52,468 nucleotides of DNA, taken from a virus. Its lineage: Duplodnaviria; Caudoviricetes. The number at the start of each line of letters is the position of its first letter. Position 1 is the first letter of the stretch. Positions 9,468 to 45,888 of the stretch are shown here, one piece after another. The notes below the pieces were generated by a model. The model had not been told where the DNA came from. It ran no database searches and worked only from the letters and a program-made list of their open reading frames with translations. Both the position numbers and the translations under genes were made by a program. Where the stretch lies: positions 1-52,468 of the IMG/VR virus record IMGVR_UViG_3300033153_008490. One strand, given 5' to 3'.

Positions 9468-10283
9468 ATGGTTTCGAGAGCTAAAATTCCCCCTAGTCAA
9501 ATTGAGAAGCATGGTTTCAAACAAAGGGGTACGTTGCGGACGGGTATACCGCTGGACAAGGGACGTGTTTCGGATGCGTTTCGAGTGTTCAATGGGCCGG
9601 TGCGGATTATCTCTATGTTTATGGAGATAACGGAGGCGGTGCCGGCGGGGACGTGTAATATGTCCTGGGTGTTTAGGAGCGACGCCGGGGGGTATCGCGT
9701 TATCGGGGATACGGTGGATATTGCTCCAAGTGCCCTGGGCGACTTCTATGTAGCCGAGTTGGACGGTACGAATATCGTACAGGTGACCACTGGGACGGGG
9801 GCGATACACGGGTATTGGTATGAGGCGGCGACGGCGAATGGGACGATAGTGACACAGGGGGGGATCGATATCTCCTTCTCCGATTCGGCGATGTCAGCGG
9901 GGGAAGCAACGCTCTATGTGTATTATCAGCCGATTGTCAACAATGCGTGTATCGTAGCGGAAGATTGGCAGACAACGAGTACGACGTCGAGTAGTACAAC
10001 TAGCACAACGAGTTCGAGTAGTTCGACGGCGAGTACGACATCGAGTACGAGTAGTACAGCGAGCACAAGTTCGACGGCAAGTACTACAAGTAGTACAAGT
10101 TCGACAGCGAGTACGAGTAGTACCAGTAGTAGTACCAGTAGCACATCAAGCACGAGTAGTACTTCAAGCAGTACGAGTAGTACAAGCAGCACATCAAGCA
10201 CGAGTAGTACGAGTAGCTCTACGAGTAGTACGGCGAGCACGACAAGTACAACTACGACGTTTGCACCCCATCCTGGACCGTAG
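9468..10283 (+). CDS. Putative virion decoration protein with C-terminal mucin-like Ser/Thr tract
   Basis: Beta-rich N-terminal domain, then 96 residues of only S/T/A (9972-10259). Confidence 0.8.
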   Translation: MVSRAKIPPSQIEKHGFKQRGTLRTGIPLDKGRVSDAFRVFNGPVRIISMFMEITEAVPAGTCNMSWVFRSDAGGYRVIGDTVDIAPSALGDFYVAELDGTNIVQVTTGTGAIHGYWYEAATANGTIVTQGGIDISFSDSAMSAGEATLYVYYQPIVNNACIVAEDWQTTSTTSSSTTSTTSSSSSTASTTSSTSSTASTSSTASTTSSTSSTASTSSTSSSTSSTSSTSSTSSSTSSTSSTSSTSSTSSSTSSTASTTSTTTTFAPHPGP

Positions 10284-10498
10284 TGACAAATAAAAGTAAA
10301 GGATTGAAGACGATGAGTGAGGCAAAAGTGGCAAAGATAGTTTTGGGCATAGACGGGCAGAAGATAGAGTTGTCTCCAGAGCAGGCTAAAGAGCTGCGCA
10401 GTAGTTGTATAAGAGGTGGAGTGGGAGAGCCAGCACCACTGAGAGGCACCACCGCCGATGCCGTGGTGTACGATGAGATGGATCTTATGGGTGAATGA
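10283..10498 (+). CDS. Small protein ending in a terminase Walker-B-like segment
   Basis: C-terminus LRGTTADAVVYDEMDLM. Confidence 0.5.
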   Translation: MTNKSKGLKTMSEAKVAKIVLGIDGQKIELSPEQAKELRSSCIRGGVGEPAPLRGTTADAVVYDEMDLMGE

Positions 10499-10543
10499 CA
10501 ACATTAGAGATTGCCAAATTACGTGTAAAGCTGGCTAACACCA

Positions 10544-12199
10544 ATGACTGACATGACCCTAGCTAAGAAAATGGCTATAATCGATCCGGCGAGTTGGGCC
10601 GACGTGAACAGTATCCAACTGCAAAAGGGGGTATGGTCGTTTAAGGATCGGGCGTATCTGATCGAGCCGATGCAGGCGCATTTGAGAGAAGCGCCTAGAC
10701 GGCGGTGCTTTATGAAGGCGACGCAGATGGGATTTTCAGAGTTGCACATTCTGAAGATTCTCTGGGGGTTGATTCACAAGTATTACCCAGCAGGTGTACT
10801 CTACTTGTTCCCCACGAAGAACGACGTGGGCGAGTTTAGTAAAGCACGGTTTGGTCCGTTGATTCGGGCGAATCCGACAGCGATAGGCCAGTATGTGAAG
10901 GATGTTGCGAGTAAGACGGACACGGTTAGTTTGAAGAAAGTGGGAGATGCGTTTCTATATTTGCGGGGTGGCAGCCTTACCAAGCACATGGAAGCGGGGG
11001 TGCAAGAGAGTGCGGCGTTGAGAGGAATTACCGTGGACGGAGTCGTCTATGATGAGCTGGATCTGATGGACGAGGATGTGATTCCGAAGGCAGAAGGTCG
11101 AATGGGCGATAGTGAGATAGCGGAGCAGTCGTTCATCTCGAATCCCGTGCTGCCAGATAAGGGGATCGCATCACTCTATGACCAAAGCGATCAGCGACAT
11201 TGGTTTAGGACGTGTTTGAAATGTGGGTATAAGACGTGTGCAGAGTTGGAGTTTCCAGATCTGATCGGGCAGAAGAACGGGAAGGGCTATGTCGCGTGTA
11301 AGAAGTGTGGGAAGCCGACGGATCCAAGATATGGATCGTGGGTGCCAGCGGTTAGGGATAACTCAGATTACATGTGGGGGTATCAATTAAGTCAGTTGAC
11401 GAGCGTGAATCGTGACCCGTATCAGATATTGGAAGAGTATACGAATCCGCCCGACGGCAATCTGGGGGATATTGTTAGGCTGAAGTTGGGTTTGCCCTAT
11501 GTCAGTAGCGAGGATAAACTCACGAGCGGACAAGTCCTGAGTTGTTGTGGGTCAGAGGTTATGCGGAATGGACATCCAGGGCCGTGCGCAATGGGCGTAG
11601 ACGTGAAGAGGCACAAGAATGTGGTGATTGGTATTCGTGTGGGGGAAGATCGGTATCAAGTGCTAAGGGTTGCACGGATCGGCACGGGGATAGAGGCGTG
11701 GACTGATATATTGCAGATGGCCAAGCGGTTCAATGTCAGAAGTGCGGTAGTGGATATTAGACCCTACGAGGATGCGGCGAGGCAGTTTCAAAAGCAAGCA
11801 CCGTTTAAGACATGGTTGTGTCAGTATTCGGAGAGTACTCCTATGGGGACACAATACAATAGCAGGAGTGGAATTGTGACTGTGAATCGGACGGAGATAT
11901 TGGATGCGACGCATCGGTTGATATCGAATGAGCGGCAGTTGGAGTTACCGGCGAGTTGTCCCGAGGTGAAGCAGTTTGCGTTGGAGTGTTCTAGTATTGC
12001 AAAGGTGGCGGAGGTTAATAAGAAGACGGGGCAGTCGGTCTTTCGGTATCATAAACTTAGTACAAATCCTGATGACTATCGGCATGCGCTCAACTACTTC
12101 TATCTGGCGGCTAGTGGGGGGCGTGTGGCTACGGTAGGTGGGAGTGGGAGACGAACGAGTCGGCCGAGGTTTGCTAAGAATGAGTACGCGCGGTGTTAA
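10544..12199 (+). CDS. terL: Terminase large subunit, lambda gpA-like
   Basis: Walker A KATQMGFSE, Walker B VVYDELD, ISNP coupling motif, CxxC Zn motifs, MGVD nuclease motif and DDYRHALNY. Confidence 0.9.
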   Translation: MTDMTLAKKMAIIDPASWADVNSIQLQKGVWSFKDRAYLIEPMQAHLREAPRRRCFMKATQMGFSELHILKILWGLIHKYYPAGVLYLFPTKNDVGEFSKARFGPLIRANPTAIGQYVKDVASKTDTVSLKKVGDAFLYLRGGSLTKHMEAGVQESAALRGITVDGVVYDELDLMDEDVIPKAEGRMGDSEIAEQSFISNPVLPDKGIASLYDQSDQRHWFRTCLKCGYKTCAELEFPDLIGQKNGKGYVACKKCGKPTDPRYGSWVPAVRDNSDYMWGYQLSQLTSVNRDPYQILEEYTNPPDGNLGDIVRLKLGLPYVSSEDKLTSGQVLSCCGSEVMRNGHPGPCAMGVDVKRHKNVVIGIRVGEDRYQVLRVARIGTGIEAWTDILQMAKRFNVRSAVVDIRPYEDAARQFQKQAPFKTWLCQYSESTPMGTQYNSRSGIVTVNRTEILDATHRLISNERQLELPASCPEVKQFALECSSIAKVAEVNKKTGQSVFRYHKLSTNPDDYRHALNYFYLAASGGRVATVGGSGRRTSRPRFAKNEYARC

Positions 12200-12429: not shown

Positions 12430-12522
12430 GCCCACAAAAAGCATTGAAGAGATTATACAGGAAATAGAAAGACTCGACGGCATGAAGAGGCAGTGTGATA
12501 AAGCTATCATGTTTTCGTTGCT

Positions 12523-13020: not shown

Positions 13021-13021
13021 T

Positions 13022-13219: not shown

Positions 13220-13222
13220 GTT

Positions 13223-18897: not shown

Positions 18898-19182
18898 ATG
18901 AGTAAGCAAAAACACATATCCCCTTGGAAGGATAGTCAGGTATCACAGCTAACTAAGTGGCTTCAGTTAATTTACACTGCGGCATCTAATGGGCAGTACG
19001 ATTGTGAAGAGGAACTACAGTTGGAATACTGGCCCGCTGTTTCTAGTACGATTGCTCGGTACATATTGCCCCCAAACAAGGACTACTTGGTTATGTCTAG
19101 GAATGCTGATAATTATGTGACGGTGGAAATGGCAGCTACGCGTCTAAAGTGCAACTGTTTGCCAGAAGAACTTGGTCTTTAG
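18898..19182 (+). CDS. Hypothetical protein
   Basis: 94-aa ORF with AGGAGAG RBS. Confidence 0.5.
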   Translation: MSKQKHISPWKDSQVSQLTKWLQLIYTAASNGQYDCEEELQLEYWPAVSSTIARYILPPNKDYLVMSRNADNYVTVEMAATRLKCNCLPEELGL

Positions 19183-19195
19183 CAGGAGAGTAAAA

Positions 19196-19666
19196 ATGAA
19201 ACAACATGAGAAGTATGGGCTCTGCCTAGACGCCGGCTCCAGCATTGGTACGAAGAGGCCGGCGCCAGGGTTTAGCGCCTATTGTGATGTGATTGTGCCG
19301 AGAGAAGGCGACATCGTACCGGAGAATTATCACACGGCTCCGCTAGAGGATATGAGTTGCTTCAGTGATAAACAATTTGATTGGGTCCGATGTCACCATG
19401 CGATTGAGCATACGTATGATCCAGATAAGGCGTGTCGTGAGTTGATTCGTGTAGGCAAAGCAGGGATTATCTCCTACCCCCCGATGTGGTCGTGTATGTT
19501 GTTTGGGAGGAGGGATCACAATTGGTTCGTGACGGAAGATCATGGAAGACTGGTGTTTATCAAAAAGAGACACGCCAGTTACGGGGTACCGAGGTGTGAA
19601 GTGGGCACCGAGTTGAATCGCAACTTCGAGTGGAAAGACTCGTTCAAATGGCTAGTCGTAGAGTAG
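19196..19666 (+). CDS. Class I SAM-dependent methyltransferase (type 11-like)
   Basis: CLDAGS, FSDKQFDWV.CHHAIEH..DP.KAC.ELIRVGKAG. Confidence 0.8.
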   Translation: MKQHEKYGLCLDAGSSIGTKRPAPGFSAYCDVIVPREGDIVPENYHTAPLEDMSCFSDKQFDWVRCHHAIEHTYDPDKACRELIRVGKAGIISYPPMWSCMLFGRRDHNWFVTEDHGRLVFIKKRHASYGVPRCEVGTELNRNFEWKDSFKWLVVE

Positions 19667-19672: not shown

Positions 19673-20296
19673 ATGGTGATGAGTAATACAAACAAAACAG
19701 GATTGGTATTTGATGTAGGAGCATATCGTGGTGACAAAACAAAGTCCTATCTATTACAAGGACACAATGTAGTCAGCTTCGAGCCAAATCCAGTCTATGC
19801 TGCAAAACTACGTAGCCGTTTTAAGAAAAACGTAACCGTAGTTGAAAAGGCTGTTGGTTCCTTTGGTGGGACTGTAAAGCTGATGATATGCTCCAGAGCA
19901 GCAACAATATCTACTTGTAGTCCATTGTGGAAGACCGGGCGATTTGCTCAATATAAATGGGATAAAGAGATTGATGCTGAGCAAATAACGCTTGATACTG
20001 CAATATCCGAATATGGTAAACCAGACTTTATTAAAATAGATGTAGAGGGGTATGAGTACGAAGTGCTTAAAGGTCTGAGTTCTTACGTTTGTGAGCTGTC
20101 ATTTGAGTTTGCCTGTGAATTTCAATCTGCTATATCAAAATGCGTAGAAAGATTAGTTGAACTTGGATATCGACAGTTTAGTTTCAAAAACGCAAAGCAG
20201 TCTAACCTTTACATCTCATGGGGAAGTTCTTTTGAAGCGATAGATGCACTCGGTAAAATGCCTGTATGCACATGGGGAGATGTTTATGCTAAATGA
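19673..20296 (+). CDS. FkbM-family methyltransferase
   Basis: VFDVGAYRG, SFEPNP, TLD and FIKIDVEGYEYEVLKG. Confidence 0.9.
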   Translation: MVMSNTNKTGLVFDVGAYRGDKTKSYLLQGHNVVSFEPNPVYAAKLRSRFKKNVTVVEKAVGSFGGTVKLMICSRAATISTCSPLWKTGRFAQYKWDKEIDAEQITLDTAISEYGKPDFIKIDVEGYEYEVLKGLSSYVCELSFEFACEFQSAISKCVERLVELGYRQFSFKNAKQSNLYISWGSSFEAIDALGKMPVCTWGDVYAK

Positions 20297-20897
20297 GCCA
20301 GAAATGAAACCCTCTATTGCACATAGACTGACAAACGGTAAGAAAGACAAACTACAACCACGTAGACTCAAACTGAAACCCCTTGATAGGGATGTCGCCA
20401 AAGAGAATTTACTCCTAATGAAAGAAGTTCTGGACCGGCGTAACATCAAATTCTGGCTGCTATATGGAACTCTTCTTGGGGCAGTTCGTGATAAGAACTT
20501 TATTGCAGGAGACAATGATATAGACCTCGGTTTCTATTACAGTGATGCGGAAGAAGTATATAACGCACTATTGAAACTACAAACTCTTGGTTTCAACATA
20601 TTTCGTGTTACCGCAGATAGTACGTTCGTCCAGATTAGCCGAAACGGGGTTTATATTGATATAGTTCTATGGAATCAGGAGCATGAAACTATGTGGAGGT
20701 GTGGTGATTATTACGAACCGCACAACTTCTTTTCCGAATTTATAGAATGGCCGTTCCTCGATACTACATTTCTCATCCCAAAGAAATATGAGGAGTATCT
20801 AAGAGTACACTACTACGGCGAAAATTGGAAAATACCAGATCCTTCGTGCAAACATGCAAAAGTGTGTAAAATCAGCAAGAGGAGTAGGGACGCATGA
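20286..20897 (+). CDS. LicD/fukutin-family phosphotransferase
   Basis: FWLLYGTLLGAVRD..FI..DNDIDLG and IP..YEEYL...YG.NWKIP. Confidence 0.88.
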   Translation: MLNEPEMKPSIAHRLTNGKKDKLQPRRLKLKPLDRDVAKENLLLMKEVLDRRNIKFWLLYGTLLGAVRDKNFIAGDNDIDLGFYYSDAEEVYNALLKLQTLGFNIFRVTADSTFVQISRNGVYIDIVLWNQEHETMWRCGDYYEPHNFFSEFIEWPFLDTTFLIPKKYEEYLRVHYYGENWKIPDPSCKHAKVCKISKRSRDA

Positions 20898-21295
20898 TTA
20901 TCGTATATTCATCTTACGTGCTTGACATAGTTCATAAAGGACATCTTGAAATGCTACGAAACGCTAAAGCTGTAGCTGGCAGAGATGGCAGACTCATAGT
21001 AGGAATACTTACCGAGGCGGCTTGCTGCGAAAAGAAGCCCGCGCCCATAATGCCATTCGAGGAGCGAGTAGAGCTTGCTCGCAGTATAGAGTGTGTAGAT
21101 TTGGTAGTAGCACAATCAACCTATTCTACACTATCGAACATACAATCCATTAAACCTGATATACTAATGGAATCCTCATCACACGAACCAGATCCAGATG
21201 TCATATCCGCTATGAATAGGTTAGGTGGAAGAATCATCTGCATACCCTACTTTCCAGACCACTCTTCGACTAAAATTAAGGAACAGATTAGATGA
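20894..21295 (+). CDS. HxGH-type cytidylyltransferase (TagD-like)
   Basis: DIVHKGHL..L..AK, LIVGILT, K..PIMPFEER and SSTKIK. Confidence 0.88.
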   Translation: MIIVYSSYVLDIVHKGHLEMLRNAKAVAGRDGRLIVGILTEAACCEKKPAPIMPFEERVELARSIECVDLVVAQSTYSTLSNIQSIKPDILMESSSHEPDPDVISAMNRLGGRIICIPYFPDHSSTKIKEQIR

Positions 21296-21672
21296 TAGAT
21301 ACTCATCGCAAATCAATGCTCAAAAGTATAGTCTGGAGAGTGATAGGTGTATTCTGGCTTGCCGGTATAACATACGCTGTCACTCGTAGTTGGATACAAA
21401 TGTCTATAACTACACTCATTCACCATGCTGTTTTTCTCGTAGTATTCTATCTCCATGAGCGTGCGTGGGTTAGGTCGAGGATGAGGCCAAAAGTTAAGTA
21501 TGCTGTAAAAGCATTAACATACGAGGTTGTACTTGGAAACCTGATTCTCGGGCTGATAACCTATGCAGTGATACGCAATCCATATCATATGACGCTCGTG
21601 ACTGGTGTTTATATACAGTCCAAACTTGTTCTATACTTCTTTTACGATTGGCTGTGGTCGCGGAAAAGCTGA
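21292..21672 (+). CDS. DUF2061-like membrane protein (tandem domain)
   Basis: KS.LKSI.WRVIG...FYLHERAW, repeated as KALTYE...YFFYDWLW. Confidence 0.7.
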   Translation: MIDTHRKSMLKSIVWRVIGVFWLAGITYAVTRSWIQMSITTLIHHAVFLVVFYLHERAWVRSRMRPKVKYAVKALTYEVVLGNLILGLITYAVIRNPYHMTLVTGVYIQSKLVLYFFYDWLWSRKS

Positions 21673-21708: not shown

Positions 21709-23412
21709 ATGGATAGAATAGAGTGGGACAAGCACTGGATTGATAGTGTTGATATATATCTTAGAAATAAAGACCTGGCAAGGCTTCGCCCTGTATTAAG
21801 GACATATCTTCACGGAAAGATAGCAGACATAGGATGTGGAGTTAATACAATATACAGTCCTGAAAATGATATAACAGGTGTGGATATAAGCCCAGAATGT
21901 GTCCGAATAATGTCTGAGAGGTATCCGTTTGGGAACTGGGTTGTCGGCGATGTAAGAAATACAGGATTACCAGAAGCTGCTTACGATACGGTGGTCTGCA
22001 GCCACGTACTCGAACACTTCTACGACCAGACACCTATTGTAGAAGAAATGAAACGCATCTGCAAGCCGAATGGAAATATTGTCATAGTTGTGCCAAGAAG
22101 TTCTAAAGGTCCAGATCATGTCCATCCCAAGTGGGGTCCTGCCAGAATAGAAGATAGAATAGCCTGCCATCTCAAAGATGCAGAGTATGTACACCGTGCC
22201 AGAGCACACTGGATAATTACAGGAAAGAGAACATCTACAGTATCTGTAGTTACTATAGCGTGGTCGCCTAACGCTGCCAGGATGAAGGTTATGAAAGAGA
22301 GTGTGCAAAGCTTACACTCAGCAACAAAGTACCCTTATACATGGGTAGTAGTGGATAATGGTTTTGAACAGCAGACCACATTCATAAACTCACTATCTCC
22401 TGATGTTCACATAATAAATAAGAAGTTGCACAATCCGTCACAGTCACGAAACATGGGCGCTTTCGCCACATCAAGCGACTATATAGCATTCGTTGATAAT
22501 GATGTGTTGTTCTACGAAGGGTGGCTCGAAGAAAGCATAGCTATACTTGAACGGTATCCTGATAGGAAGTTTATCGTATCGTTGACAGGTTGTCCTGTTA
22601 TGAGGAGACCTAAACACCAGGCGGGAGAGATTGACGAATATAAGTTATCTAGGTTTTCAGGAAGTCTGTGTTGGGTAATGAAAAGACGCTCATTTTTAGA
22701 AATAGGAAGATGGAATGAGACTGACACTAGCGAGGATGTGGACTACTCAAACAGAGCAAGAGAAGCTGGATACCTGTTTGTGTATCGTGATGGACCTCCA
22801 TATGTAAAGCATCTTGGGCGTCGCAGGACACGCGAAACTGCTGATAGATTTGTAGACGGTGTGTGGAAAAAGCCTAGAGCTTCTTCAAAGTCTGTGGAAG
22901 GGAAGAAGCGGGCAATGCTTGTGCAATATAGCAATAAGTTCAATCTGCGGGTATTCGTGGAAACAGGAACATACAAAGGTGATACCGTAAAGGCTATGCT
23001 TTTGAGTAACCTGTTTACCGGCATATATAGTGTGGATAATGATGTTGTTCGCGCATCTAAGGCTAATCGTAGGTTCAGGTCATTTCCACATATACACTGT
23101 GCACATGGTGACAGTTCCGTATGGATGCCTGAAATACTCAAACAAATTAGCGAACCCACTCTGTTCTGGCTGGATGCCCACGCATCATATGAGCAGGTGC
23201 AAAAGTTGGGCGTTAAGACGCCGCTGCTGGATGAGATAAAAGCAATAGTATCACATAGGACAGATCATGTTATCATTATAGATGATGCTAGATATTACGA
23301 TGGCAGTCTTAAAGACTATCCTGATATCAAACAGATAAAAGAGTTGTTACCGTCAAACTGGCAATGCGAAGTGGATAACGATATTATTAGGTGTCACCAT
23401 GTTCTCAGTTAG
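21709..23412 (+). CDS. Tri-domain methyltransferase / GT2 glycosyltransferase / methyltransferase-like protein
   Basis: IADIGCG...SHVLEH, then VVDNG...RNMGA...IAFVDND, then VFVETGTYKG...GDS...FWLDAH...IIIDD. Confidence 0.85.
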   Translation: MDRIEWDKHWIDSVDIYLRNKDLARLRPVLRTYLHGKIADIGCGVNTIYSPENDITGVDISPECVRIMSERYPFGNWVVGDVRNTGLPEAAYDTVVCSHVLEHFYDQTPIVEEMKRICKPNGNIVIVVPRSSKGPDHVHPKWGPARIEDRIACHLKDAEYVHRARAHWIITGKRTSTVSVVTIAWSPNAARMKVMKESVQSLHSATKYPYTWVVVDNGFEQQTTFINSLSPDVHIINKKLHNPSQSRNMGAFATSSDYIAFVDNDVLFYEGWLEESIAILERYPDRKFIVSLTGCPVMRRPKHQAGEIDEYKLSRFSGSLCWVMKRRSFLEIGRWNETDTSEDVDYSNRAREAGYLFVYRDGPPYVKHLGRRRTRETADRFVDGVWKKPRASSKSVEGKKRAMLVQYSNKFNLRVFVETGTYKGDTVKAMLLSNLFTGIYSVDNDVVRASKANRRFRSFPHIHCAHGDSSVWMPEILKQISEPTLFWLDAHASYEQVQKLGVKTPLLDEIKAIVSHRTDHVIIIDDARYYDGSLKDYPDIKQIKELLPSNWQCEVDNDIIRCHHVLS

Positions 23413-24113
23413 GAAGTTTAACGGGAGGTTTGCAAATAAAGTGTTGCTGTATGCGACGCTTAGAGAGCGGGCACACTTCCCCGATAACTATCAATGCGTA
23501 TCATGGGTTGGGCAACAGTTGTTTGGCTTAGACGATCCGCCAAGAGAGGGGGCGTCAGATCAAATAGTGCACTACCCACTCCACAGCGATGGGTATAGCA
23601 AGCAAAAGATGCAGAGACTATTTCAGCCGACCGATAAGGTGAGGCAGTTGGTCTCACCCACGATTGACAATCTGCGCGAGGCAGGGCATACGCTTATTGG
23701 TGTACATCTACGGCGGGGTGACTATGGTACATTTAGGCGGTACAGTGCTCGGTGGTGTTTTATCGCGCCGTGCATTTGGTATGTGGAGTGGCTCAGAGCG
23801 AATCTGCGTCGCTTTCATAAGCCGATTATCATATTGACGAGTGATGAGATTGAGAAGGTGGAGCCTGAGTTTCAAGAGTTTGATATTTGTGACGATGAGG
23901 GGGGCACCTAAGTATGCGCCATACTATGCAGACTATTACGCGCTAACCCAGTGTGATGTTATGCTGATATCGAATAGTACGTTCAGCTTTACCGCATCCA
24001 TGATAAACAAACGAGCGAAGGAGTTCCATCGCCCACGATTAGGTGTACAAAAGTTAATCCCGTACAACCCTTGGGACGCACCGATTGTGTTGAAAGATGA
24101 GCGATACCCATGA
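23399..24113 (+). pseudogene. GT11 / alpha-1,2-fucosyltransferase-like gene split by a frameshift
   Basis: The N-part (23399-23911) has GRFAN and GVHLRRGDY. The C-part in the +1 frame (to 24113) has D...LTQCD...ISNSTFSFTAS. The frames join at the G6 run 23899-23904. Confidence 0.75.
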
Positions 24114-24775
24114 GTGATACGAGTGTAGTACTAATCTCTTGGTCGCCTAACGAATATAGGCGTAAGCTATTACAGCAGTCGTTGGCCTCGATACGCGAGC
24201 ACACTTACATGGATCACACGCTCATCGTCATCGACAATGGGCCGATAGAGCAACGTGAGATTATCAAGGATGCGGAGCCTGATATCCACATTATCAATGA
24301 TATTAATAAAGGGGTTGGTGTCAGTCGTAATCAAGGGGCGCGGTTGACCAAGAGTGAGTTCATTGCGTTTGTTGATAGTGATATTGGATACTTCCCTGAT
24401 TGGCTCGCTAAATGCGTAGACGTGTTGGAAAAGTATCCGGACAGGAAATTGATTGCCAGTGCGGTAAAGAACAAGCCTATGCGATTGCCAAAATATGATA
24501 GGGGTCCGCTAGGTGAGTATCATCTATATGGTCGTTGTGCAGGTATGGCAATGGTAATGCGGAGAAGTGCTTATAATGAGATCGGGCACTTCCACGAATT
24601 GAAGACCAATGTGGGACATCAATTTTGTGCAGCAGCCAAGCGATGTGGGTATATGTTCGTACATCACCCCGAGTGGGCAGGTCGTCATTTAGGCAGGAAG
24701 TCGGCGTATCATTATAAGAAACAACAGTTCTTACCGGAAACCGGTGAGTGGGTTAGTAGAAATAGATTAGCATAA
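24110..24775 (+). CDS. GT2-family glycosyltransferase
   Basis: IVIDNG, NKGVGVSRNQGA and IAFVDSD. Paralog of the GT domain of 21709..23412. Confidence 0.88.
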   Translation: MSDTSVVLISWSPNEYRRKLLQQSLASIREHTYMDHTLIVIDNGPIEQREIIKDAEPDIHIINDINKGVGVSRNQGARLTKSEFIAFVDSDIGYFPDWLAKCVDVLEKYPDRKLIASAVKNKPMRLPKYDRGPLGEYHLYGRCAGMAMVMRRSAYNEIGHFHELKTNVGHQFCAAAKRCGYMFVHHPEWAGRHLGRKSAYHYKKQQFLPETGEWVSRNRLA

Positions 24776-24789: not shown

Positions 24790-25887
24790 ATGACACAAGA
24801 GAAATGGGCACCAGCCACGATTCCCGACTGGGACGGAAAGACCGAAGTTTCAGTAGTCATTCCGTTTTGTAATGAAGGACCCAACGTCGTCTTTACGATT
24901 CAGTCGATTATCGAAGAGTTGACCGGGTTTTGCAAATTTGAAATTCTAGCGATTGATAACCAATCGGATTGGTATATTGATTGCTCGGTCAAGAATGAGC
25001 ATATGCCGTTGATGGATGGCAAGGAACGTAAGTATCCCATTCGGTCACGTGCTTTCTTTGAAGGGCCACCCAACTCAAAGCGTGCCGGTAGTACGATCAG
25101 TACTATGTTCTTCCGTAAAGGTGTGGTTAAGTATCTCAAGTACGACCAGAAGCAAGGCCACTGGAATGCGAAGAATCATGGAATCGCCAACAGTCGGGGT
25201 AAGTATCTCTTCTTTGTGGACGCCCATTGCATTATGGCGAGAGACTCGCTGCGACATATGGTAGAGTTCCTGCGCCACCCGCCGGAGAAGAAGATTGGCG
25301 GTGTCCACGCGTACATCAACTATATGCTGGATTCGCGGTCACTAGAGTACCGCCCACAGAAGGACAAGTTTTTTGGCTACCAATTCTGCACCCACCAACA
25401 GGAAGAGTATTACGAAGGGGGGAAACGGAAATTGCGCTTCCCCACGAAAGCGTATAAGGTCTGTGTTATGAGTACATGTGGCATGATGTGTCCGAGGACG
25501 GTGGTACAGGAGTTGGGCGGTTGGCACCCTGAGTTCGGTATCTACTGCGGTGGTGAAGGGTATATGAACTTTAAGCAAAGCGTTTGTGGCTATCATCACT
25601 GGATCGAGCCAAAAGCCGTTTGCTGGCATTGGGCGGAAAAGCGGGGCTATATCTGGAACCATCGTGATTACGTGCGGAATGAGCAGATTGCAGCTTTCGT
25701 CTGTGGTGGGGAACGAGCGTTGCAGTTTTGCGTAAAGGGTCGCGGGGGTAATCAAGGGTTGATTGATCTGGCTGACGACGTGCGCGAAAAGTGTACCCCG
25801 GAACGAGAGTTTATAGCGGAGAGACAATTGGAAGACCTAGAGTCCTACTTTGACCGCTGGGTTGCAACCCCTGGAGTATGGAAATGA
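24790..25887 (+). CDS. GT-A glycosyltransferase resembling polypeptide GalNAc-transferases
   Basis: SVVIPFCNE, EILAIDN.SD, G....KN.GI..SRG.YLFFVDAHC, LGGW...FGIYCGGE...NFK...CG.....P.A.C.H. Confidence 0.8.
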   Translation: MTQEKWAPATIPDWDGKTEVSVVIPFCNEGPNVVFTIQSIIEELTGFCKFEILAIDNQSDWYIDCSVKNEHMPLMDGKERKYPIRSRAFFEGPPNSKRAGSTISTMFFRKGVVKYLKYDQKQGHWNAKNHGIANSRGKYLFFVDAHCIMARDSLRHMVEFLRHPPEKKIGGVHAYINYMLDSRSLEYRPQKDKFFGYQFCTHQQEEYYEGGKRKLRFPTKAYKVCVMSTCGMMCPRTVVQELGGWHPEFGIYCGGEGYMNFKQSVCGYHHWIEPKAVCWHWAEKRGYIWNHRDYVRNEQIAAFVCGGERALQFCVKGRGGNQGLIDLADDVREKCTPEREFIAERQLEDLESYFDRWVATPGVWK

Positions 25888-26072
25888 TTATCACCTCCAT
25901 AGACAACGAGTCCACTGTAACGGGGAGTAGTGAGTACGGTGGGGAGGCTGTGCTCAACGTCAAGGAGGCGGCTAACACAGCCCTATTGCAGGAGATATTA
26001 CACTCGCTTAACAAAATTGAATATCATCTGTCGCTGATGACGGATGCAGATTTGGAAAAAGGAGCCCTATAA
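25878..26072 (+). CDS. Small hypothetical protein
   Basis: LLQEIL..L.KIEYHLS.MTD, overlapping neighbours. Confidence 0.55.
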   Translation: MEMIITSIDNESTVTGSSEYGGEAVLNVKEAANTALLQEILHSLNKIEYHLSLMTDADLEKGAL

Positions 26073-26626
26073 TGCCTACTATCAATGATGCCAATGGACA
26101 ACCGGCGACCATAAGCAGTGAAGGTCGTTTAGCAATCGACGGGGTGGCCCAATCTCCCGCCCTGCACAACAATGCTCGTCATGGTGACACGTTCTCCATC
26201 CTGGTAGACGTGACGACGGCCTCAACTGACGATGATTTCTTCTACCTGCTCAATAACGAGGACGAAGATATTATCATCTACCGCATTGAAGGGTGGTGTG
26301 ATGATGCGAGTCAAGAGATTAAGATTCTGCTCGGTGCATCAGATGCGGGTACGGCAGCAGGCGATACGCTAACGCCAGTGGCTATGAACGCAGGGAGTGG
26401 GGTAGTGCCGGATATCACCTGTACGCAGGACGCAACGGATCTGGCGATTACGGGTGGTAGTGCAATATCGCTATTGAAGTTCAACGCAGTGGCACTACAG
26501 CCGGGCATGTGGAACTACTCAGAAGGCATTGTGTTGCCTAAGAACAAACGGCTTCACATGGAAGCGGCGTTGGCCGGGCTTATCAACCTGAATATCTACT
26601 TCTACTTCGATCATACGACTGAATGA
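26072..26626 (+). CDS. Putative virion structural protein
   Basis: Acidic, beta-rich, G/T/A-rich 184 aa in the structural operon. Confidence 0.6.
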   Translation: MPTINDANGQPATISSEGRLAIDGVAQSPALHNNARHGDTFSILVDVTTASTDDDFFYLLNNEDEDIIIYRIEGWCDDASQEIKILLGASDAGTAAGDTLTPVAMNAGSGVVPDITCTQDATDLAITGGSAISLLKFNAVALQPGMWNYSEGIVLPKNKRLHMEAALAGLINLNIYFYFDHTTE

Positions 26627-26643
26627 CAGCTTGAGGCCCTACA

Positions 26644-27741: not shown

Positions 27742-27772
27742 ATAACAGTTAGCAATAATAGGAGTTTAGATT

Positions 27773-28054: not shown

Positions 28055-28111
28055 TAGAAAGGATGGTGTACCATCGCTAATACAGGATATGATTATGGAG
28101 CATGGGCATTT

Positions 28112-28492
28112 GTGCAGGATGATGGTGGGACCGATTGGGATGCGGATGCACTGGCTGATAACGCCACCGAGACGAGTAATACAGCTATCTCACTGGACAA
28201 GAAAGCGGCGTGTATCATCGGCCTGTTTGTCTTGGAAGACACGGGCGCGATTGATGGTGTGGTGACAGTGTACGTATTGGGTGATGGTGCGGGTGTTGCG
28301 TATGAAGAGACGACGATAGGCAGTCCATATAGTTTTACCTTTACGCCTACTGCCTCAGACACAACGTATATCCAGTTCTCCATCGATCCGAGGCACTATG
28401 ACAACTTCAAGATTGCGGTGAAAAATGAAAGCGGTCAGTCGCTGGCCGTCTCGATCAAATACAAGACCGCTGATATCCCGGTTGCGAGTTAA
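28112..28492 (+). CDS. Putative virion structural protein (frame is open back to ATC 28073)
   Basis: Beta-rich acidic ORF in the structural operon. Confidence 0.6.
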   Translation: MQDDGGTDWDADALADNATETSNTAISLDKKAACIIGLFVLEDTGAIDGVVTVYVLGDGAGVAYEETTIGSPYSFTFTPTASDTTYIQFSIDPRHYDNFKIAVKNESGQSLAVSIKYKTADIPVAS

Positions 28493-28495: not shown

Positions 28496-30865
28496 ATGAT
28501 TCTCAAGCCACCTAAAGGAGCTTTGCCAGTTCGCGGCCATTGGTCTATGGACGGTTGTACCGGTCTATGGTTGATGAATGAGGGTGGTGGGAATACTGTT
28601 GCTGACCTGAGCGGGAATGGGAACCATCTATCGTTTGTGAATCCCCCGACGTGGGTAGCAAGTCAGTATGGTCCTGCTTTAGATTTTAATGGCAGTACCA
28701 ACTATATAAATACGACAGGACCAGTTGCACAAGCACCACTCGGAAACTTCACATTGTGTTCGTGGTTGCGTCCAGATACGCTTTCTGCTGATGACTGTGC
28801 AATTATTTTCTATGGCACAGATGATCTTGCATTCCTGCCAAACGACAATGCGGACGGCAATGGCGGATATCGCGTGTTCTGGCGTGACCGTGGCAGCAAC
28901 GTCGTTCTTGAGAATCCAGGACCGGATTTGTCCGGCTTATGGATTCACATGTGTTTCACGCGAGAAGACGACACGTTCACTTCATACCGCAACGGCGTTC
29001 AGGTGGATCAAGATACTTTAGGTGCCGGAACAGAAGGACCATTTACGGGGTTTCGTGTTGGGAGCTTTGAAGGGAATCAGTACTTCGACGGAACTATCAG
29101 TGATGTTGCTGTGTGGAATCGGGCCCTCATCCCCACTGAAATCACTAGCCTCTACGCTAACCCGTATCAGATGTTTGAGAACGATCCGATTGAGTTATGG
29201 ACGGCGGCGAGCGGCGGTGGGGCTGCTGCAAGTACCTACAGTCGTGGTGATTATGCGGGACTTCCGGCAGATGATACGACTCTTGAAAACGTGTTTACGG
29301 CGGGTGAAGTTGCCCAAGTTGGAGCTGATGATGGGGATAGGGTCGCCCAAACAGCAACGTCTGAATACGCAATATTCCAATTCCGTGATGATATTGGCGC
29401 GAATCTCTACGTTGATGCGACGTGGGACGGTCAAAGTGATTTAGCACCTTCAACCACAACTGTATATCTGCAAGTCTATAATCAAAACACAACTACGTGG
29501 GAGACAGTAGACAGTAATTCCGCTGCGGCAGCGAATACAGACTTCACGCTAGGCGGGTTTAAGAAGAACACCACTGATTACATAGATGGTGCGAATTATA
29601 TAGCATTTCGCATCTATCAGGATGACGACCAAGACGGCGGCATATCGTTAAAGACCGATTACTGGGATGTCTACACTTCGGCAACGACGAGTACAACATC
29701 CACCACCACGACGACTTCAACGACTACAACAACTTCGACTACGACAACTTCATCTACCACAACGAGTACAACTTCCAGTACCAGCTCTACTGCTAGTACA
29801 ACTTCGTCAACGAGTTCGACTACTTCTACGACGAGTTCTACCACTTCTACCACGAGTTCCACATCATCTACAGCGAGCACAACATCAAGTACGTCTAGCA
29901 CCACTTCTACGACGAGCAGTACATCTAGCACTGCCAGCACAACCTCTAGTACGTCCAGCTCAACCTCTAGTACCGCCAGTACCACATCGAGCACAAGTTC
30001 TAGCACGTCCAGCACCGCGAGTACTACGTCTAGCACAACAAGCTCATCATCCAGTACGGCAAGTACGAGTACATCCTCTAGTACTAGTAGCACAGCGAGC
30101 ACTAGTACGACTTCCAGTACGACCAGTTCATCTAGCACCGCTTCCACTTCCTCGTCGTCATCCAGTACTACATCTTCGGCAACATCGTCCAGCACCAGCA
30201 GTACTACGTCATCATCTTCATCCACGGCGTCTACTAGTAGCACATCCTCGTCCACATCATCTTCGTCCAGTACGGCAAGTACGTCCAGTACTAGCAGTTC
30301 CACCAGCTCAACCGCGTCCACATCAAGCACTTCGTCCTCCAGCAGTAGTACCGCATCTACGTCAAGTACCAGTTCATCTACCAGTAGTTCAAGTAGTACA
30401 GCTAGCACATCCAGTACCAGTACCGCCACATCGTCCAGCACTTCGTCCAGTACAACCTCCTCCACCACGACAACGGGTGCGCCTGTCACCTACGCAAAGG
30501 AGATATGGCATAACATGGAAACGGATACAACATTATACGCATGTCGATTTACTGAAGCGGGGGATGTCTTCTTAGCAGACGGCTCATCGTCGGAAGAGTG
30601 GGGTACGGGGGGACACACCTCCGATGACTATGCCGTAGCGATGGCCGAAGTGGATGATAGTGGGTATTACCATGCTCGGTTTGACGCAGAGGGTAATATT
30701 TCCGACGGCCTCTACAACGTTGTCATATATAAACAAGTGGGTCTATATCCGAAAGATGCTGACCCATCGGTAGGACAAGGGGAGATAGATTGGCGCGACG
30801 GGGAAGAGTTTACAAAAGGCGTGCTCCATGCCGATCTCAAACAGCGCACAGGACCGTGGATATAG
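28496..30865 (+). CDS. LamG/concanavalin-A-like domain virion protein with 267-aa mucin-like Ser/Thr stalk
   Basis: GLWLMNEGGG.TV.DLSGNGN...ALDFNG...YFDG.I.DVAVWNRAL...EI..LY (LamG), followed by the S/T/A tract 29675-30475. Confidence 0.88.
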   Translation: MILKPPKGALPVRGHWSMDGCTGLWLMNEGGGNTVADLSGNGNHLSFVNPPTWVASQYGPALDFNGSTNYINTTGPVAQAPLGNFTLCSWLRPDTLSADDCAIIFYGTDDLAFLPNDNADGNGGYRVFWRDRGSNVVLENPGPDLSGLWIHMCFTREDDTFTSYRNGVQVDQDTLGAGTEGPFTGFRVGSFEGNQYFDGTISDVAVWNRALIPTEITSLYANPYQMFENDPIELWTAASGGGAAASTYSRGDYAGLPADDTTLENVFTAGEVAQVGADDGDRVAQTATSEYAIFQFRDDIGANLYVDATWDGQSDLAPSTTTVYLQVYNQNTTTWETVDSNSAAAANTDFTLGGFKKNTTDYIDGANYIAFRIYQDDDQDGGISLKTDYWDVYTSATTSTTSTTTTTSTTTTTSTTTTSSTTTSTTSSTSSTASTTSSTSSTTSTTSSTTSTTSSTSSTASTTSSTSSTTSTTSSTSSTASTTSSTSSSTSSTASTTSSTSSSTSSTASTTSSTTSSSSSTASTSTSSSTSSTASTSTTSSTTSSSSTASTSSSSSSTTSSATSSSTSSTTSSSSSTASTSSTSSSTSSSSSTASTSSTSSSTSSTASTSSTSSSSSSTASTSSTSSSTSSSSSTASTSSTSTATSSSTSSSTTSSTTTTGAPVTYAKEIWHNMETDTTLYACRFTEAGDVFLADGSSSEEWGTGGHTSDDYAVAMAEVDDSGYYHARFDAEGNISDGLYNVVIYKQVGLYPKDADPSVGQGEIDWRDGEEFTKGVLHADLKQRTGPWI

Positions 30866-30875: not shown

Positions 30876-32378
30876 ATGGCTATTGTAGACTTTACAGCAG
30901 GTTGGACAGAAGTAGACACCAGTGGCGTTATTACCGTCACGTCCGCCACTCGTCTGGACTACGATGGGGTGCCGCGCGATGATGATGCGCAGTATTACAA
31001 AGACTACGGCGCGGCCTACTTCTCTGGCGACTTCACGCATACGTTTAAATGCCAAATCAACTCCGCTGGGTCTACCACTTTCGCGGAGGTGATTCCGTGG
31101 GCGTTGTCAAATACGGCGGGGGGTGATAGAACAACGTGGATAGGCAACAGTGAAGATTTTGTCATGTTCATGCTGTACGAGGGGGCGGAAGGCGCTTACG
31201 CACTGGAGTCACGTCTGTATGAAGGCGGGGTGAAGGTTGACTCAGATGTGTACGTCTGCTCCGCCAACACAACCTACTATATCAATGTTACACGTAATTA
31301 TGATGGGGGGGCCAATTCAACCGGTCGTTACACCTTCTACATTTGTACGGGTAATTATCTGGACGACCCAGGCTCCACCGTCGTAGATACACACGTGTTG
31401 GACGCTTCGGTTGGGGAGCAAAACTCGTTCCAATATCTCTACGCATGTCAAAACCGCAATGACGCTAGTGCGGGTAACACTATCGATGGGTTTATTGAAG
31501 ATTTGGATTTACACGGGGGGACTACGTCAACCACGAGTTCCTCCACAACGACGAGTACCAGCAGTACCGCCAGTACTAGCTCCACCTCATCGTCTACTAC
31601 CAGCTCAGCTTCAAGTTCATCTACCAGCTCGTCTACGTCTACGACCACGTCGTCCAGCTCCACCGCTTCAACGTCGAGTAGTTCTAGTTCCACCACCTCC
31701 ACAAGTTCAACTGCTTCAACATCAAGTAGTTCTAGTTCTACCACGTCTACATCAAGTACAACCAGCTCAACAGCTAGTTCTACATCCACCACTACGTCGT
31801 CAAGCTCATCCACATCCTCATCCTCCTCATCCACTACCACCACGTCGCCCGGCGAAACAGCGATACAGTGCACCAGTGGAACTTACGATATTACCAGCCA
31901 AATTACCATCTTCACGTACACGAACAATACTACCCAAGTGCAAATATGCCAAGGCGTAGTCTCCTTCGGTGATGGGATTAACGACCTAAGCGGTACCGCC
32001 GTCACAATGGAGATGACGTTGGGGTTTGGTGGCCAAACCAATCAGCCTAATGCGCAATACGTCTCCTTCGATACGACAACGCGATCATCTATCTTTACTC
32101 AGCAATTCCCTCTACCTGTGGGCCAATCCGTTACGTTCAAAGTTAAGAGCCAAAACGCTTCCGACTCTTCCGTGTGGATACGCGCGTGTTTGTATGAGGT
32201 CGGCGTGGAATCTATTCGGGATGACTTGGAAGATATTATCGACGATCTCACGGCATTGTTTGCCAGATCTCAGGTACTCGTCAACACGTACGATACGACG
32301 GGTGCGGCTGGTAAAGGTGCGGGGGTCATTCCAACAGGACAGTCAACCAACATTGGTATATATCCAGGGACTACATAA
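30876..32378 (+). CDS. Virion protein with 109-aa mucin-like Ser/Thr linker
   Basis: Two beta-rich domains separated by the S/T/A tract 31521-31847. Confidence 0.8.
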   Translation: MAIVDFTAGWTEVDTSGVITVTSATRLDYDGVPRDDDAQYYKDYGAAYFSGDFTHTFKCQINSAGSTTFAEVIPWALSNTAGGDRTTWIGNSEDFVMFMLYEGAEGAYALESRLYEGGVKVDSDVYVCSANTTYYINVTRNYDGGANSTGRYTFYICTGNYLDDPGSTVVDTHVLDASVGEQNSFQYLYACQNRNDASAGNTIDGFIEDLDLHGGTTSTTSSSTTTSTSSTASTSSTSSSTTSSASSSSTSSSTSTTTSSSSTASTSSSSSSTTSTSSTASTSSSSSSTTSTSSTTSSTASSTSTTTSSSSSTSSSSSSTTTTSPGETAIQCTSGTYDITSQITIFTYTNNTTQVQICQGVVSFGDGINDLSGTAVTMEMTLGFGGQTNQPNAQYVSFDTTTRSSIFTQQFPLPVGQSVTFKVKSQNASDSSVWIRACLYEVGVESIRDDLEDIIDDLTALFARSQVLVNTYDTTGAAGKGAGVIPTGQSTNIGIYPGTT

Positions 32379-44478: not shown

Positions 44479-44522
44479 ATAAGTATGGGTAATAGTAATA
44501 CCAACCTAGTAGGAGAGTAGCC

Positions 44523-44852
44523 GTGTGGACCATACAGCAATATATCCCTAACTTCGTAGACATTGGAGACAAGATACCACCAACAGCATCATTCCAAACT
44601 TTGGAAGAGTTGACGGCAATCCCGTTTGTACAGGGTTGGACCGAAGATCCAGGATTCAAACAGTTATCCATGAGCATACGCAACAACGAGATTCGTCCAT
44701 ATCCCCTACTTATGGCCGAGTATGAGACCGGCAGCGCACCTTGCGTTGGCCACCTACGTGGTATACCCACATTTTTACCCTTATGGCGGCGTGTGTCCAA
44801 CGACGTAGCGCGTGCGCTCAATATTGATCCAAGTAGAATGCCTACCAAATAG
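44523..44852 (+). CDS. Hypothetical protein
   Basis: 109-aa ORF with AGGAGAG RBS and GTG start. Confidence 0.55.
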   Translation: MWTIQQYIPNFVDIGDKIPPTASFQTLEELTAIPFVQGWTEDPGFKQLSMSIRNNEIRPYPLLMAEYETGSAPCVGHLRGIPTFLPLWRRVSNDVARALNIDPSRMPTK

Positions 44853-44862
44853 GAGAGCAACC

Positions 44863-45888
44863 ATGTTATCAGTAATTGTGCCAGCCCATAATGAGGCCGA
44901 ATACTTAAACCACACCATCGCCAATATCTATGATACGGCCACTGGTCCCATCGAAGTGCTTGTTATTGACCAAGGGGGGAACGACAACATCGACGAGCGC
45001 GCCACCATTCTCACACCGGGCGAAAACGTAGGCGAGCGCGCCGCCATGAACATGGGCGCTAAATCAGCAACCGGCACACACCTTTTCCGCATAGACGCCC
45101 ATTGTGATTTCTCCCCCGTTGGCTGGGACGAATTGCTAATCGAGTCCACGGGTCCGAAGGATCTCACCATATCCGTACTCACCGCTACGGATAAATCGTG
45201 GAACCGACTCCCGGGCCACTGGTATGGCTTTGCCCGCCTTATCACGAATGAACAGGGGGGCCTGGAATGCAAATGGCAAAAAGCCAACAAAGACCATGAT
45301 GAGTACGCCCCCCTCGAACCGAATATGGGTGCGACCGGCTGCGGGATGTGTATCCGCAAAGACTTCTATTGGGAGATTGGCGGCGCTGACGATACATTGC
45401 CTAAGATGGGCGCAATCGGTGAAGAGTTTGCGATCAAAACATGGCACCACAATATCACCCACCACCTATTTGGCCGCGTCCAAACTCGCACCGACGTGAT
45501 GGTCGGCCATATATTTGGAACCGGTGGCTATGATACGAGTGGTGTACTCGTTGCCCAGCAAAAGCTTCACGCCCAATATGGCCATGTTCTCCCCCAAATC
45601 CTATCTCGCTTCCCCGATTGGGATGAGATGAAAATCGTGAAGACAGATCAACCCGGCAAACCCATCCGAACAGTGACCGTTGACCGCACAGATATCATGG
45701 ACACACATGGGGATGAAGGTAAGATCCTCCGCCGCAAGACCAATACCTATCGCTATATTTGGTTGGAGAATGAGCATTTAGACGAATCCGCCTGGACAGA
45801 CGGACAAATTGAAAACAAGTACGCCCCCCTAGCCACACTAATGAGCGAGACAGTGACCTACCCCGATGATGAAACGCCTAATGAGTAA
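44863..45888 (+). CDS. Second polypeptide-GalNAc-transferase-like glycosyltransferase
   Basis: LSVIVPAHNE, G.RAAMN.GA..ATG..LFRIDAHCDF...GWD, FYWEIGG.D......G..GEEF..KTW and VGHIF. AGGAGAG RBS precedes ATG 44863. Confidence 0.82.
   Translation: MLSVIVPAHNEAEYLNHTIANIYDTATGPIEVLVIDQGGNDNIDERATILTPGENVGERAAMNMGAKSATGTHLFRIDAHCDFSPVGWDELLIESTGPKDLTISVLTATDKSWNRLPGHWYGFARLITNEQGGLECKWQKANKDHDEYAPLEPNMGATGCGMCIRKDFYWEIGGADDTLPKMGAIGEEFAIKTWHHNITHHLFGRVQTRTDVMVGHIFGTGGYDTSGVLVAQQKLHAQYGHVLPQILSRFPDWDEMKIVKTDQPGKPIRTVTVDRTDIMDTHGDEGKILRRKTNTYRYIWLENEHLDESAWTDGQIENKYAPLATLMSETVTYPDDETPNE

Follow-up and report, generated by a model that had tools for sequence, protein, structure and literature searches.

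GT27-like glycosyltransferases paired with Ser/Thr-tract proteins in an uncultured podophage: a candidate mucin-type-like O-glycosylation system

To our knowledge, phage particles are generally treated as unglycosylated. Giant viruses such as the chloroviruses and mimivirus glycosylate their capsids and fibrils with self-encoded, multi-enzyme machinery, and serine-rich repeat adhesins carry a stalk tipped with a binding domain, with initiation of glycosylation by GtfA/GtfB, export through an accessory Sec system and anchoring in the cell wall. These adhesins are described as being glycosylated inside the cell (PMC7948813), and O-glycosylation is described both for Gram-positive serine-rich adhesins and for disordered Ser/Thr-rich (S/T-rich) regions of streptococcal proteins (PMC7948813, PMC6973325, PMC12041528). 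Mucin-like S/T stretches are described as targets of polypeptide N-acetylgalactosaminyltransferases (ppGalNAc-Ts) (PMC3417536). One established exception among phages is provided by mycobacteriophages, which are reported to carry short glycans at the C-termini of their capsid and tail tube subunits (PMC12619734, citing Freeman et al. 2023). The word 'phage' is absent from a 2024 review on viral O-glycosylation. Here we analysed the IMG/VR record IMGVR_UViG_3300033153_008490, a single contig of 52,468 bp from an uncultured podophage; the window, as we call the stretch analysed, spans all of this record. It encodes three proteins with long tracts of Ser, Thr and Ala only (the stalk proteins ST1–ST3) and two soluble glycosyltransferases (GTs) that resemble the ppGalNAc-Ts of family GT27 (GT-A and GT-B). 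Our reading, held with moderate confidence, is that the phage encodes its own machinery for mucin-type-like O-glycosylation in the cytoplasm and uses it to produce glycosylated stalk proteins for its particles. The genes that carry this reading are the following:

9462..10283, + strand: ST1, a beta-rich N-terminal domain of about 170 aa, then a 96-aa tract; stop codon 7 aa past the tract
28496..30865, + strand: ST2, a LamG/ConA-like lectin domain, a second globular domain, the tract and a C-terminal Ig-like beta-sandwich (30476-30862)
30876..32378, + strand: ST3, a 215-aa N-terminal domain, a 109-aa tract and a 176-aa C-terminal domain
24790..25887, + strand: GT-A, a soluble 365-aa GT27-like (ppGalNAc-T-like) glycosyltransferase, candidate initiating enzyme
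44863..45888, + strand: GT-B, the other GT27-like enzyme, encoded downstream of the tailspike, 341 aa from the ATG at 44863 (call of the source)

As in eukaryotic mucin-type O-glycosylation, whose GT27 catalytic domain was the best match in the Protein Data Bank (PDB) by profile for both GT-A and GT-B and by fold for GT-A, the DxH, GGE and distal His residues are conserved, and the enzymes presumably act on long, near-homopolymeric S/T stretches. Unlike their eukaryotic counterparts, the phage enzymes (341-365 aa, soluble) come without a ricin-type lectin domain, a membrane anchor or a secretory pathway, so that the reaction would be cytoplasmic. Mycobacteriophages likewise encode GTs within the structural gene block and modify their own structural proteins; the candidate substrates in the window, in contrast, are separate proteins with S/T/A-only tracts of 96-267 aa, and the enzyme is GT27-like. 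The tracts of ST1–ST3 are the only strict S/T tracts of the window (a strict tract being 30 aa or longer, with S+T making up at least 85%, in an open reading frame (ORF) of at least 100 aa); the capsid gene (16453-17385) has none, and podophages have, as far as we know, no tail tube protein. With the serine-rich repeat adhesins the locus shares long Ser-rich tracts and intracellular glycosylation, which occurs there and is proposed here. It differs from them in that no GT4 enzyme of the GtfA/GtfB type was found in a scan of the cassette and stalk proteins, in which accessory Sec and wall anchor were not searched for, that the stalk proteins lack a signal-peptide-like segment and that their carrier would be the virus particle and not the cell wall. 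Like the giant viruses, this phage would apply its own multi-enzyme machinery to particle surface proteins; the giant viruses, however, infect eukaryotes and use other enzyme families and linkages, as against a tailed phage of 52 kb.

The preliminary description of this DNA, made from its letters without database searches, had reported about 470 residues of S/T/A-only tracts in three proteins. Our count gave 472 aa in three + strand ORFs, and the coordinates agreed exactly: 9972-10259 in ST1 (96 aa; S53 T38 A5), 29675-30475 in ST2 (267 aa; S144 T107 A16) and 31521-31847 in ST3 (109 aa; S64 T40 A5). The tracts draw on the full sets of six Ser and four Thr codons, with 64 AGY versus 80 TCN serine codons in the 267-aa tract, and Tandem Repeats Finder detected weak DNA periodicity (60-85% matches); the tracts are not simple microsatellites. 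Codon diversity combined with weak DNA repeats points to selection acting, in this frame, on the composition of the protein. The possibility that the tracts are a frame artefact was rejected on the codon diversity and on the flanking domains of ST2 and ST3, which are in frame with their tracts.

In ST2 the Pfam domain Laminin_G_3 was detected upstream of the tract (E 7e-21), a conserved domain of 110 aa follows it downstream, and the structure model of the protein had a pLDDT of 88.4. Pfam and PHROG gave no matches for ST1 or for ST3. The Atlas look-alikes of the ST3 N-terminal domain include LamG-like and CBM-like clusters, and those of ST1 are phage proteins of about 105-115 aa; we regard both as leads only. 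The start codon of ST1 is uncertain (TTG 9462 or ATG 9612), and its orthologue in the relative L002 (453-1151) keeps the in-frame S/T tail upstream of the gene for the large terminase subunit (TerL). ST1 was also considered as the small terminase subunit; this was rejected, the product of 7144-7677 being read as the small terminase by eye, without a family-library test. By hydropathy scan, all three stalk proteins lack hydrophobic segments, signal peptides included.

Both GTs (24790 and 44863) had been called ppGalNAc-T-like in the preliminary description, and our searches bore this out by profile for both and by predicted fold for GT-A. Searches of the PDB with single sequences returned weak ppGalNAc-T matches alone (E 0.01 and 5.5e-4), and profiles were needed. 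Homologous clusters numbered 93 for GT-A and 96 for GT-B, and they carried metagenome labels (jgi, ena, lgn) except for a handful (ncbi, metaclust, src). The GT-A profile, built from 18 homologues, matched ppGalNAc-T4 best (E 2.6e-17, profile positions 5-279 of 330). All of the top 15 PDB rows were ppGalNAc-Ts (E 2.6e-17 to 1.6e-12), and the first row outside GT27 was heparosan synthase (1e-8), matched in the N-terminal half alone. Similar results were obtained with the GT-B profile (19 homologues), for which Toxoplasma GalNAc-T3 came first (E 1.9e-16) and was followed by seven further ppGalNAc-T rows. Ordinary GT2s aligned mainly with the N-terminal part of the profiles, and ppGalNAc-Ts aligned with the whole catalytic domain. 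The AlphaFold (AF2) model of GT-A (pLDDT 88.4, pTM 0.89), which ends in three helices, was compared with the PDB using Foldseek; the matches listed (ranks 1-48) were ppGalNAc-Ts alone, with a best E of 2.8e-15 and 12-17% identity between the model and GT27 structures.

The residues expected of a GT27 active site were conserved. In GT-A, D144, H146, G254, E256 and H280 were invariant in 18/18 sequences of each of two alignments, which have six rows in common, and G255 was invariant in the first alignment and present in at least 90% of the second, which reaches down to 23-27% identity. In the alignment with GalNAc-T4 they lie opposite its DCHC, GGEN and GH positions, and the GGE block aligns with the GGEN segment of PGANT9 as well; D78 and H80 of GT-B were invariant in 19/19 sequences. 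We take DxH and the distal His to be the metal ligands of GT27 enzymes, and the WGGEN... block is presumably the Gal/GalNAc-T motif. A ricin-type lectin domain was not found in GT-A or GT-B, whose Pfam matches were GT2-family models alone (PF00535, PF13641, PF10111), and neither has a type II membrane anchor, the highest 19-residue Kyte-Doolittle mean being 1.06 for GT-A and 0.93 for GT-B. Judged from their sequences, both enzymes are nearest to GT27 catalytic domains but lack two features of that family, the lectin domain and the membrane anchor.

A narrow pattern scan of genome contigs with the first GT-A alignment found no relative, and a further GT-A-family scan, equally narrow, yielded no more than three generic GT2 matches, each partial and N-terminal, in metagenome-assembled genomes. 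When three members of the GT-A family were compared by tblastn with 50,697 GenBank phage records, no close homologue was found; the only matches were gp2 of Tunturiibacter phage Tunturi_4 and one short match in an unannotated fragment. Tunturi_4 gp2 (PP885687.1; L135:1567-2565), encoded between terminase and portal, is the sole GT-A-like enzyme of a cultured phage that we found; it is 27% identical to GT-A over about half of the query and has the DxH motif. Over the 52 kb read from the start of the Tunturi_4 genome (88 kb), no convincing S/T tract was seen. Two further GT-A homologues, of 675-690 aa (G021 16672-18696 and G022 14493-16562), have catalytic halves split by a stop-free insert of about 310 aa.

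Co-occurrence of tracts and GTs in related IMG/VR phages had been proposed in the preliminary description as a check, and we found it. A GT-A was counted as strong at an hmmsearch E of at most 1e-55 against the first GT-A alignment (A1) or at most 1e-120 against the second (A4). Strict tracts were present in 15/15 records with a strong GT-A and in 1/21 related records without one (Fisher p = 2.9e-9, relatedness ignored); among records at least 90% complete the counts were 8/8 and 0/9 (p = 4e-5, relatedness again ignored). Scanning IMG/VR with the GT-A alignment, we obtained 26 loci, and 18 of these had a strict tract within 10 kb. The 22 whole records examined first comprised 12 found via GT-A and 10 capsid relatives without it. 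All 12 of the former had tracts, 113-2,117 aa in each, including three whose 10-kb loci had none. A scan for capsid relatives of the window gave 46 loci with a tract in three of them, one being a fragment of the same phage and two being known GT-A contigs. No strict tract was found in the ten capsid-relative contigs of at least 37 kb without GT-A (G001-G010); the count leaves out the other 36 loci, mostly contigs of 4-21 kb.

The same outcome was predicted beforehand for a second lineage. From a capsid scan around G014, 80 of 189 relatives were kept and 13 new records of at least 24 kb were taken; tracts were present in 2/2 of those with a strong GT-A and absent from 10/11 without GT-A. By the shared-protein matrix, the carriers belong to the window's group, to a second group (G014-G022) and to three records (G011-G013) that share at most eight proteins with anything else. 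Tracts in relatives reach 841 aa. The strict threshold misses repeats of the 'SASISSSPSAS' type, found in G003, G004 and G009. A relaxed scan (at least 50% S+T in 40 aa) of the lineage-1 controls detected 261-445 aa of Ser/Ala/Pro-rich repeat in these three records, which are exactly the three of the ten controls with GT-B-like DxH enzymes, and in the seven controls without a GT27-like gene either nothing or short off-frame or unrelated matches (49-85 aa per record). The GT-A and GT-B-like genes adjoin each other in L003, G011 and G013; in L003 the GT-B gene lies inside the cassette, directly after tail tubular protein A.

In G012 (~27558-32099, 11030-20412) GT-A is present as three paralogues in tandem (E 1e-100 to 1e-104), and the record encodes six tract proteins with 2,117 aa of S/T, one of them a protein of 1,578 aa with an 841-aa tract. 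A 191-aa protein of G013 (L108:14309-14881, minus strand) has more than 100 consecutive threonines, and its gene adjoins those for GT-A and a GT-B-like enzyme.

In the window the stalk and enzyme genes are embedded in the late operon, whose features, together with four ORFs of the accessory block, are:

10544-12199, + strand: terminase large subunit (TerL)
13223-14851, + strand: portal
late operon, + strand: scaffold, among the structural genes identified
16453-17385, + strand: major capsid protein
18266-18877, + strand: tail tubular protein A (phrog_394, E 3e-44), upstream edge of the accessory block
26072..28492, + strand: four ORFs (184, 365, 93 and 126 aa) between the cassette and ST2, part of the accessory block
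32378-35215, + strand: tail tubular protein B, the nozzle (phrog_376, E 3e-190), downstream edge of the accessory block
late operon, + strand: internal virion proteins, one of 1513 aa
41872-44373, + strand: pectate-lyase-type tailspike, upstream of the GT-B gene

Tail tubular proteins A and B, internal virion proteins and a tailspike in one late operon agree with the earlier assignment to a podophage. Between tubular A and B the window carries 13.5 kb of cassette and stalk genes, whereas in GT-free relatives the two tubular genes are adjacent (G002) or about 0.45 kb apart. The spacer in G003 and G005 is one small gene of about 150 aa, a homologue of the ST2 C-terminal domain. Its counterpart in the window has lost its start codon and is fused in frame behind LamG, the second domain and the 267-aa tract. 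The last 129 residues of ST2 had 236 homologues at E of at most 1e-3 among 1.84 billion representatives, mostly stand-alone small phage proteins, and in most of them the match begins at residue 2 of the short protein. The four ORFs at 26072..28492 had no Pfam or PHROG matches and no homologues in related records. The content of the block varies: L001 has only the small methyltransferase, GT-A and a 333-aa tract protein, and L003 has nearly the whole cassette.

Tubular B itself is interrupted near its C-terminal sixth in G004 (~42007-43773) and G009 (~25164-26809) by an extra domain and a Ser/Ala/Pro-rich repeat of 180-210 aa, and the insertion falls between residues ~790 and 794 of the window's protein. 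In these two phages a Ser-rich tract belongs to a protein that is beyond doubt a virion component. G014, an unrelated phage, has its GT-A and tract genes flanked by the capsid gene on one side and, on the other, by genes with tail-fibre and virion-structural PHROG matches. We infer that ST1–ST3 are carried on the virion from their gene position, the kinship of the ST2 domain with a tail-module protein and the tubular B tracts of relatives.

In the 28 tract proteins examined across records, a globular region at the N-terminus is followed by the tract and, in most cases, by a short tail; by Pfam, five contain Laminin_G_3 and one SPRY. A regular expression for a proline-led, hydrophobic, five-residue tail motif was matched by 11/28, and the tail after the tract measured 16-35 residues in the 10 motif-bearing proteins of the second lineage. 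This motif may be an attachment peptide. It recurs, sometimes repeated, in tract proteins of G014, G017, G018, G020, G021 and G022. A similar acidic helix with a short conserved motif ends ST3 (32200-32378), L001:6785-7783 and the small tail-module proteins of G003 (36588-37031) and G005, which hints at a shared docking element.

The enzyme cassette, 6.7 kb inside the late operon between tubular A and B, includes, besides GT-A:

19172..19666, + strand: small class I methyltransferase (Pfam Methyltransf_11, E 6e-7), conserved partner of GT-A
19673..20296, + strand: FkbM-family methyltransferase (Pfam PF05050, E 5e-18; TIGR01444)
20244..20897, + strand: LicD-family phosphotransferase (Pfam PF04991, E 4e-13)
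20894..21295, + strand: small cytidylyl/adenylyl-transferase (Pfam PF01467, E 5.5e-13), presumed maker of the activated substrate of LicD
21292..21672, + strand: DUF2061 membrane protein (Pfam PF09834)
21709..23412, + strand: three-domain enzyme with Methyltransf_11 (aa 40-126), Glycos_transf_2 (aa 193-313) and a C-terminal FkbM-like region
23399..24113, + strand: GT11-like enzyme of the fucosyltransferase family (Pfam PF01531, E 7e-8, on the first piece, 23399-23911)
24110..24775, + strand: GT2 glycosyltransferase (Pfam PF00535, E 2e-18), candidate elongating enzyme

The preliminary description had listed GT2, GT11-like, LicD, cytidylyltransferase and methyltransferase genes within one operon, and their Pfam matches and structural neighbours confirm it. 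Its term 'complete' for the system was an overstatement, as no nucleotide-sugar synthesis genes besides the cytidylyltransferase were found. LicD (PF04991) and the cytidylyltransferase (PF01467) pass the Pfam cut-offs and reach no NCBIfam equivalog cut-off; the sub-cut-off NCBIfam matches of the latter were rfaE domain II and glycerol-3-phosphate cytidylyltransferase (46 bits versus 165). The small methyltransferase gene lies directly upstream of GT-A in L001, L002, L004, L005, L006 and L008, and a methyltransferase domain of the same type is fused to GT-A in G014. The GT2 part of the three-domain enzyme is 39% identical to the 24110-24775 product, and homologues of the latter were present in 11/12 of the GT-A records G011-G022 and in 0 of G001-G010. 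By hydropathy scan, all cassette and GT enzymes except DUF2061 are without membrane segments. DUF2061, the sole cassette protein with a membrane-like segment, is encoded by the best conserved cassette gene (78% identity in L003).

We propose that glycosylation is cytoplasmic, as phages are assembled in the cytoplasm and both the substrates and, DUF2061 apart, the enzymes are soluble. Late in infection GT-A, as a metal-dependent GT-A-fold enzyme with a DxH...H site, would transfer the first sugar from a UDP-sugar to the Ser and Thr hydroxyls of the ST1–ST3 tracts. The glycan would then be extended by the two paralogous GT2s, and by the GT11-like enzyme if its frame is intact, and O-methylated by the methyltransferases; the cytidylyltransferase could supply a CDP-activated alcohol phosphate that LicD would transfer onto the glycan. 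The predicted product is a stiff, hydrated, protease-resistant bottle-brush stalk that would hold the ConA/LamG-like binding domains outward, away from the particle, the ST2 stalk probably being attached through its C-terminal Ig-like domain, a stand-alone tail-module protein in relatives. The preliminary description, with its mucin-like glycosylated stalks, was partly supported, and all computational tests spoke in its favour: the GT27 likeness, the co-occurrence and the solubility of enzymes and stalks stood, the completeness did not, and glycosylation and virion location are proposals.

Several observations weigh against the favoured reading. Relatedness of the records inflates the Fisher p values, and the records were ascertained via pattern scans. 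G033, a 26.6-kb fragment (57% complete), has 519 aa of tract with no GT-A on the contig, and GT-B-like enzymes also occur without pure S/T tracts. The gene calls of the source lack the full ORFs of 789, 500 and 273 aa and hold only a 116-aa C-terminal piece of the 789-aa ORF (ST2); gene callers seem to skip or split stalk ORFs, and the class is probably under-annotated. Fold searches with the ST2 C-terminal domain gave generic Ig-like matches alone in the PDB (best E 0.015) and uncharacterised phage proteins alone in BFVD. The GT11-like gene is frameshifted at a G-run (~23897-23903, within 23841-23911), with the conserved C-terminal part on the second piece; it is a single 255-aa ORF in L003 (8615-9382), and the frameshift may reflect an assembly error, decay into a pseudogene or slippage. 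Enzymes that decorate cell-envelope glycans typically include LicD, small cytidylyltransferases, GT2 and GT11. Nor can the acceptor be read off from GT27 likeness: for one bacterial protein with the annotation polypeptide GalNAc-transferase, the predicted role is that of TagN, which together with TagD and TagF takes part in making a glycerol-phosphate teichoic acid substituted with GalNAc (PMC11032452).

The stalk proteins might be glycosylated by the cassette without being parts of the virion, as intracellular proteins or lysis-released ones (decoys, matrix or adhesive proteins). Co-occurrence is silent on their location, ST1, ST3 and the N-terminal parts match no structural family, and the ST2 C-terminal fold has no solved match. 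We nevertheless consider such a role unlikely, in view of the position of the genes in the late operon between tubular A and B, the lack of signal peptides, the Ser-rich tracts in tubular B of G004 and G009 and the conservation of the ST2 C-terminal domain as a stand-alone tail-module gene.

The cassette might instead modify a host envelope polymer (lipopolysaccharide, capsule or a teichoic-acid-like polymer), with the S/T tracts as unrelated linkers; a polyol-phosphate or envelope glycan is the strongest alternative acceptor. LicD, cytidylyltransferase, GT2 and GT11 are classic envelope-glycan enzymes, GT-A has a weak PHROG match to GtrB-like O-antigen conversion (E 7e-4), the cassette includes the DUF2061 membrane protein, and TagN-type GalNAc transfer to teichoic acid offers a precedent (PMC11032452). 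Host modification would, however, leave the co-occurrence of tracts and GT-A across lineages (15/15 versus 1/21) unexplained. The genes lie in the structural operon, and no integrase was noticed on reading the ORF translations, the early genes not having been scanned against family libraries. Polyprenol-linked acceptors usually require membrane association of the enzyme, and the GTs have no membrane segments. Taken together, this makes an envelope acceptor doubtful.

A further alternative holds that the tracts are unglycosylated, flexible or extended spacers tied to GT-A by one mobile accessory block. In the window's lineage tracts and GT do form a single 13.5-kb block, and hitch-hiking can mimic functional coupling. 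The GT and tract genes are, however, 8-20 kb apart in G018, G020, G021 and G022, in some on opposite strands, and the pairing recurs in groups with almost nothing else in common. The composition of the tracts also fits the acceptor preference of the GT-A-like family for mucin-like S/T stretches (PMC3417536), and we regard mere hitch-hiking as improbable. Action of the GTs on phage DNA is very improbable: DNA-glucosylating phage GTs are well known (PMC12619734), but those of the window resemble protein O-GalNAc transferases and not DNA glucosyltransferases, the link to the tracts would be unexplained, and no hydroxymethylase or base-modification genes were recognised on reading the ORF translations, with the early genes again outside the family-library scans.

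If, as we favour, the stalks are glycosylated in the cytoplasm, these phages would have a mucin-like surface layer affecting adsorption, diffusion in mucus and biofilm, protease resistance and particle stability. GT-A would then be a soluble, lectin-free relative of the ppGalNAc-Ts compatible with the bacterial cytoplasm and a potential tool for making mucin-type glycoproteins in bacteria. The joint presence of GT-A and S/T tracts would also be a clean genomic rule, for which two genes suffice as an experimental test. The preliminary description knew of no such system in a tailed phage, and the literature that we searched, mostly titles and abstracts, likewise held no description of GT27-like enzymes paired with S/T-tract proteins in phages. 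On balance, the pairing appears to be a previously undescribed form of phage virion glycosylation, for which the capsid and tail tube glycans of mycobacteriophages are the phage precedent. More tentatively, several lineages of uncultured tailed phages might make true mucin-domain glycoproteins, lectin-tipped fibres with S/T stalks of hundreds of residues, densely O-glycosylated in the cytoplasm by a phage-restricted sister group of eukaryotic GT27. Were this so, GT27-type O-glycosylation of proteins would for the first time be known outside eukaryotes, the fibres would form a new class of virion appendage, and the finding could bear on the origin of the eukaryotic mucin-initiating enzymes.

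By sequence comparison the portal of the window is about 30% identical to HTVC010P-type pelagiphage portals, and a close cultured relative was not found; no tRNA genes were found in the 52,468 bp. L027, a 24,016-bp IMG/VR contig, has a capsid gene 100% identical to that of the window and the same ST1 tract, and represents the same or a near-identical phage. Among the early genes, a 15-bp tandem repeat (2532-2751, 14.7 copies) gives rise to a pentapeptide-repeat protein (2191-2838, minus strand). Two further early proteins on the minus strand, read from their translations as ATPase-like and nuclease-like (47833-48750 and 49745-50776), have lysine/valine-rich C-terminal tails, which are visible in the DNA as short tandem repeats (47848-47895 and 49766-49804).

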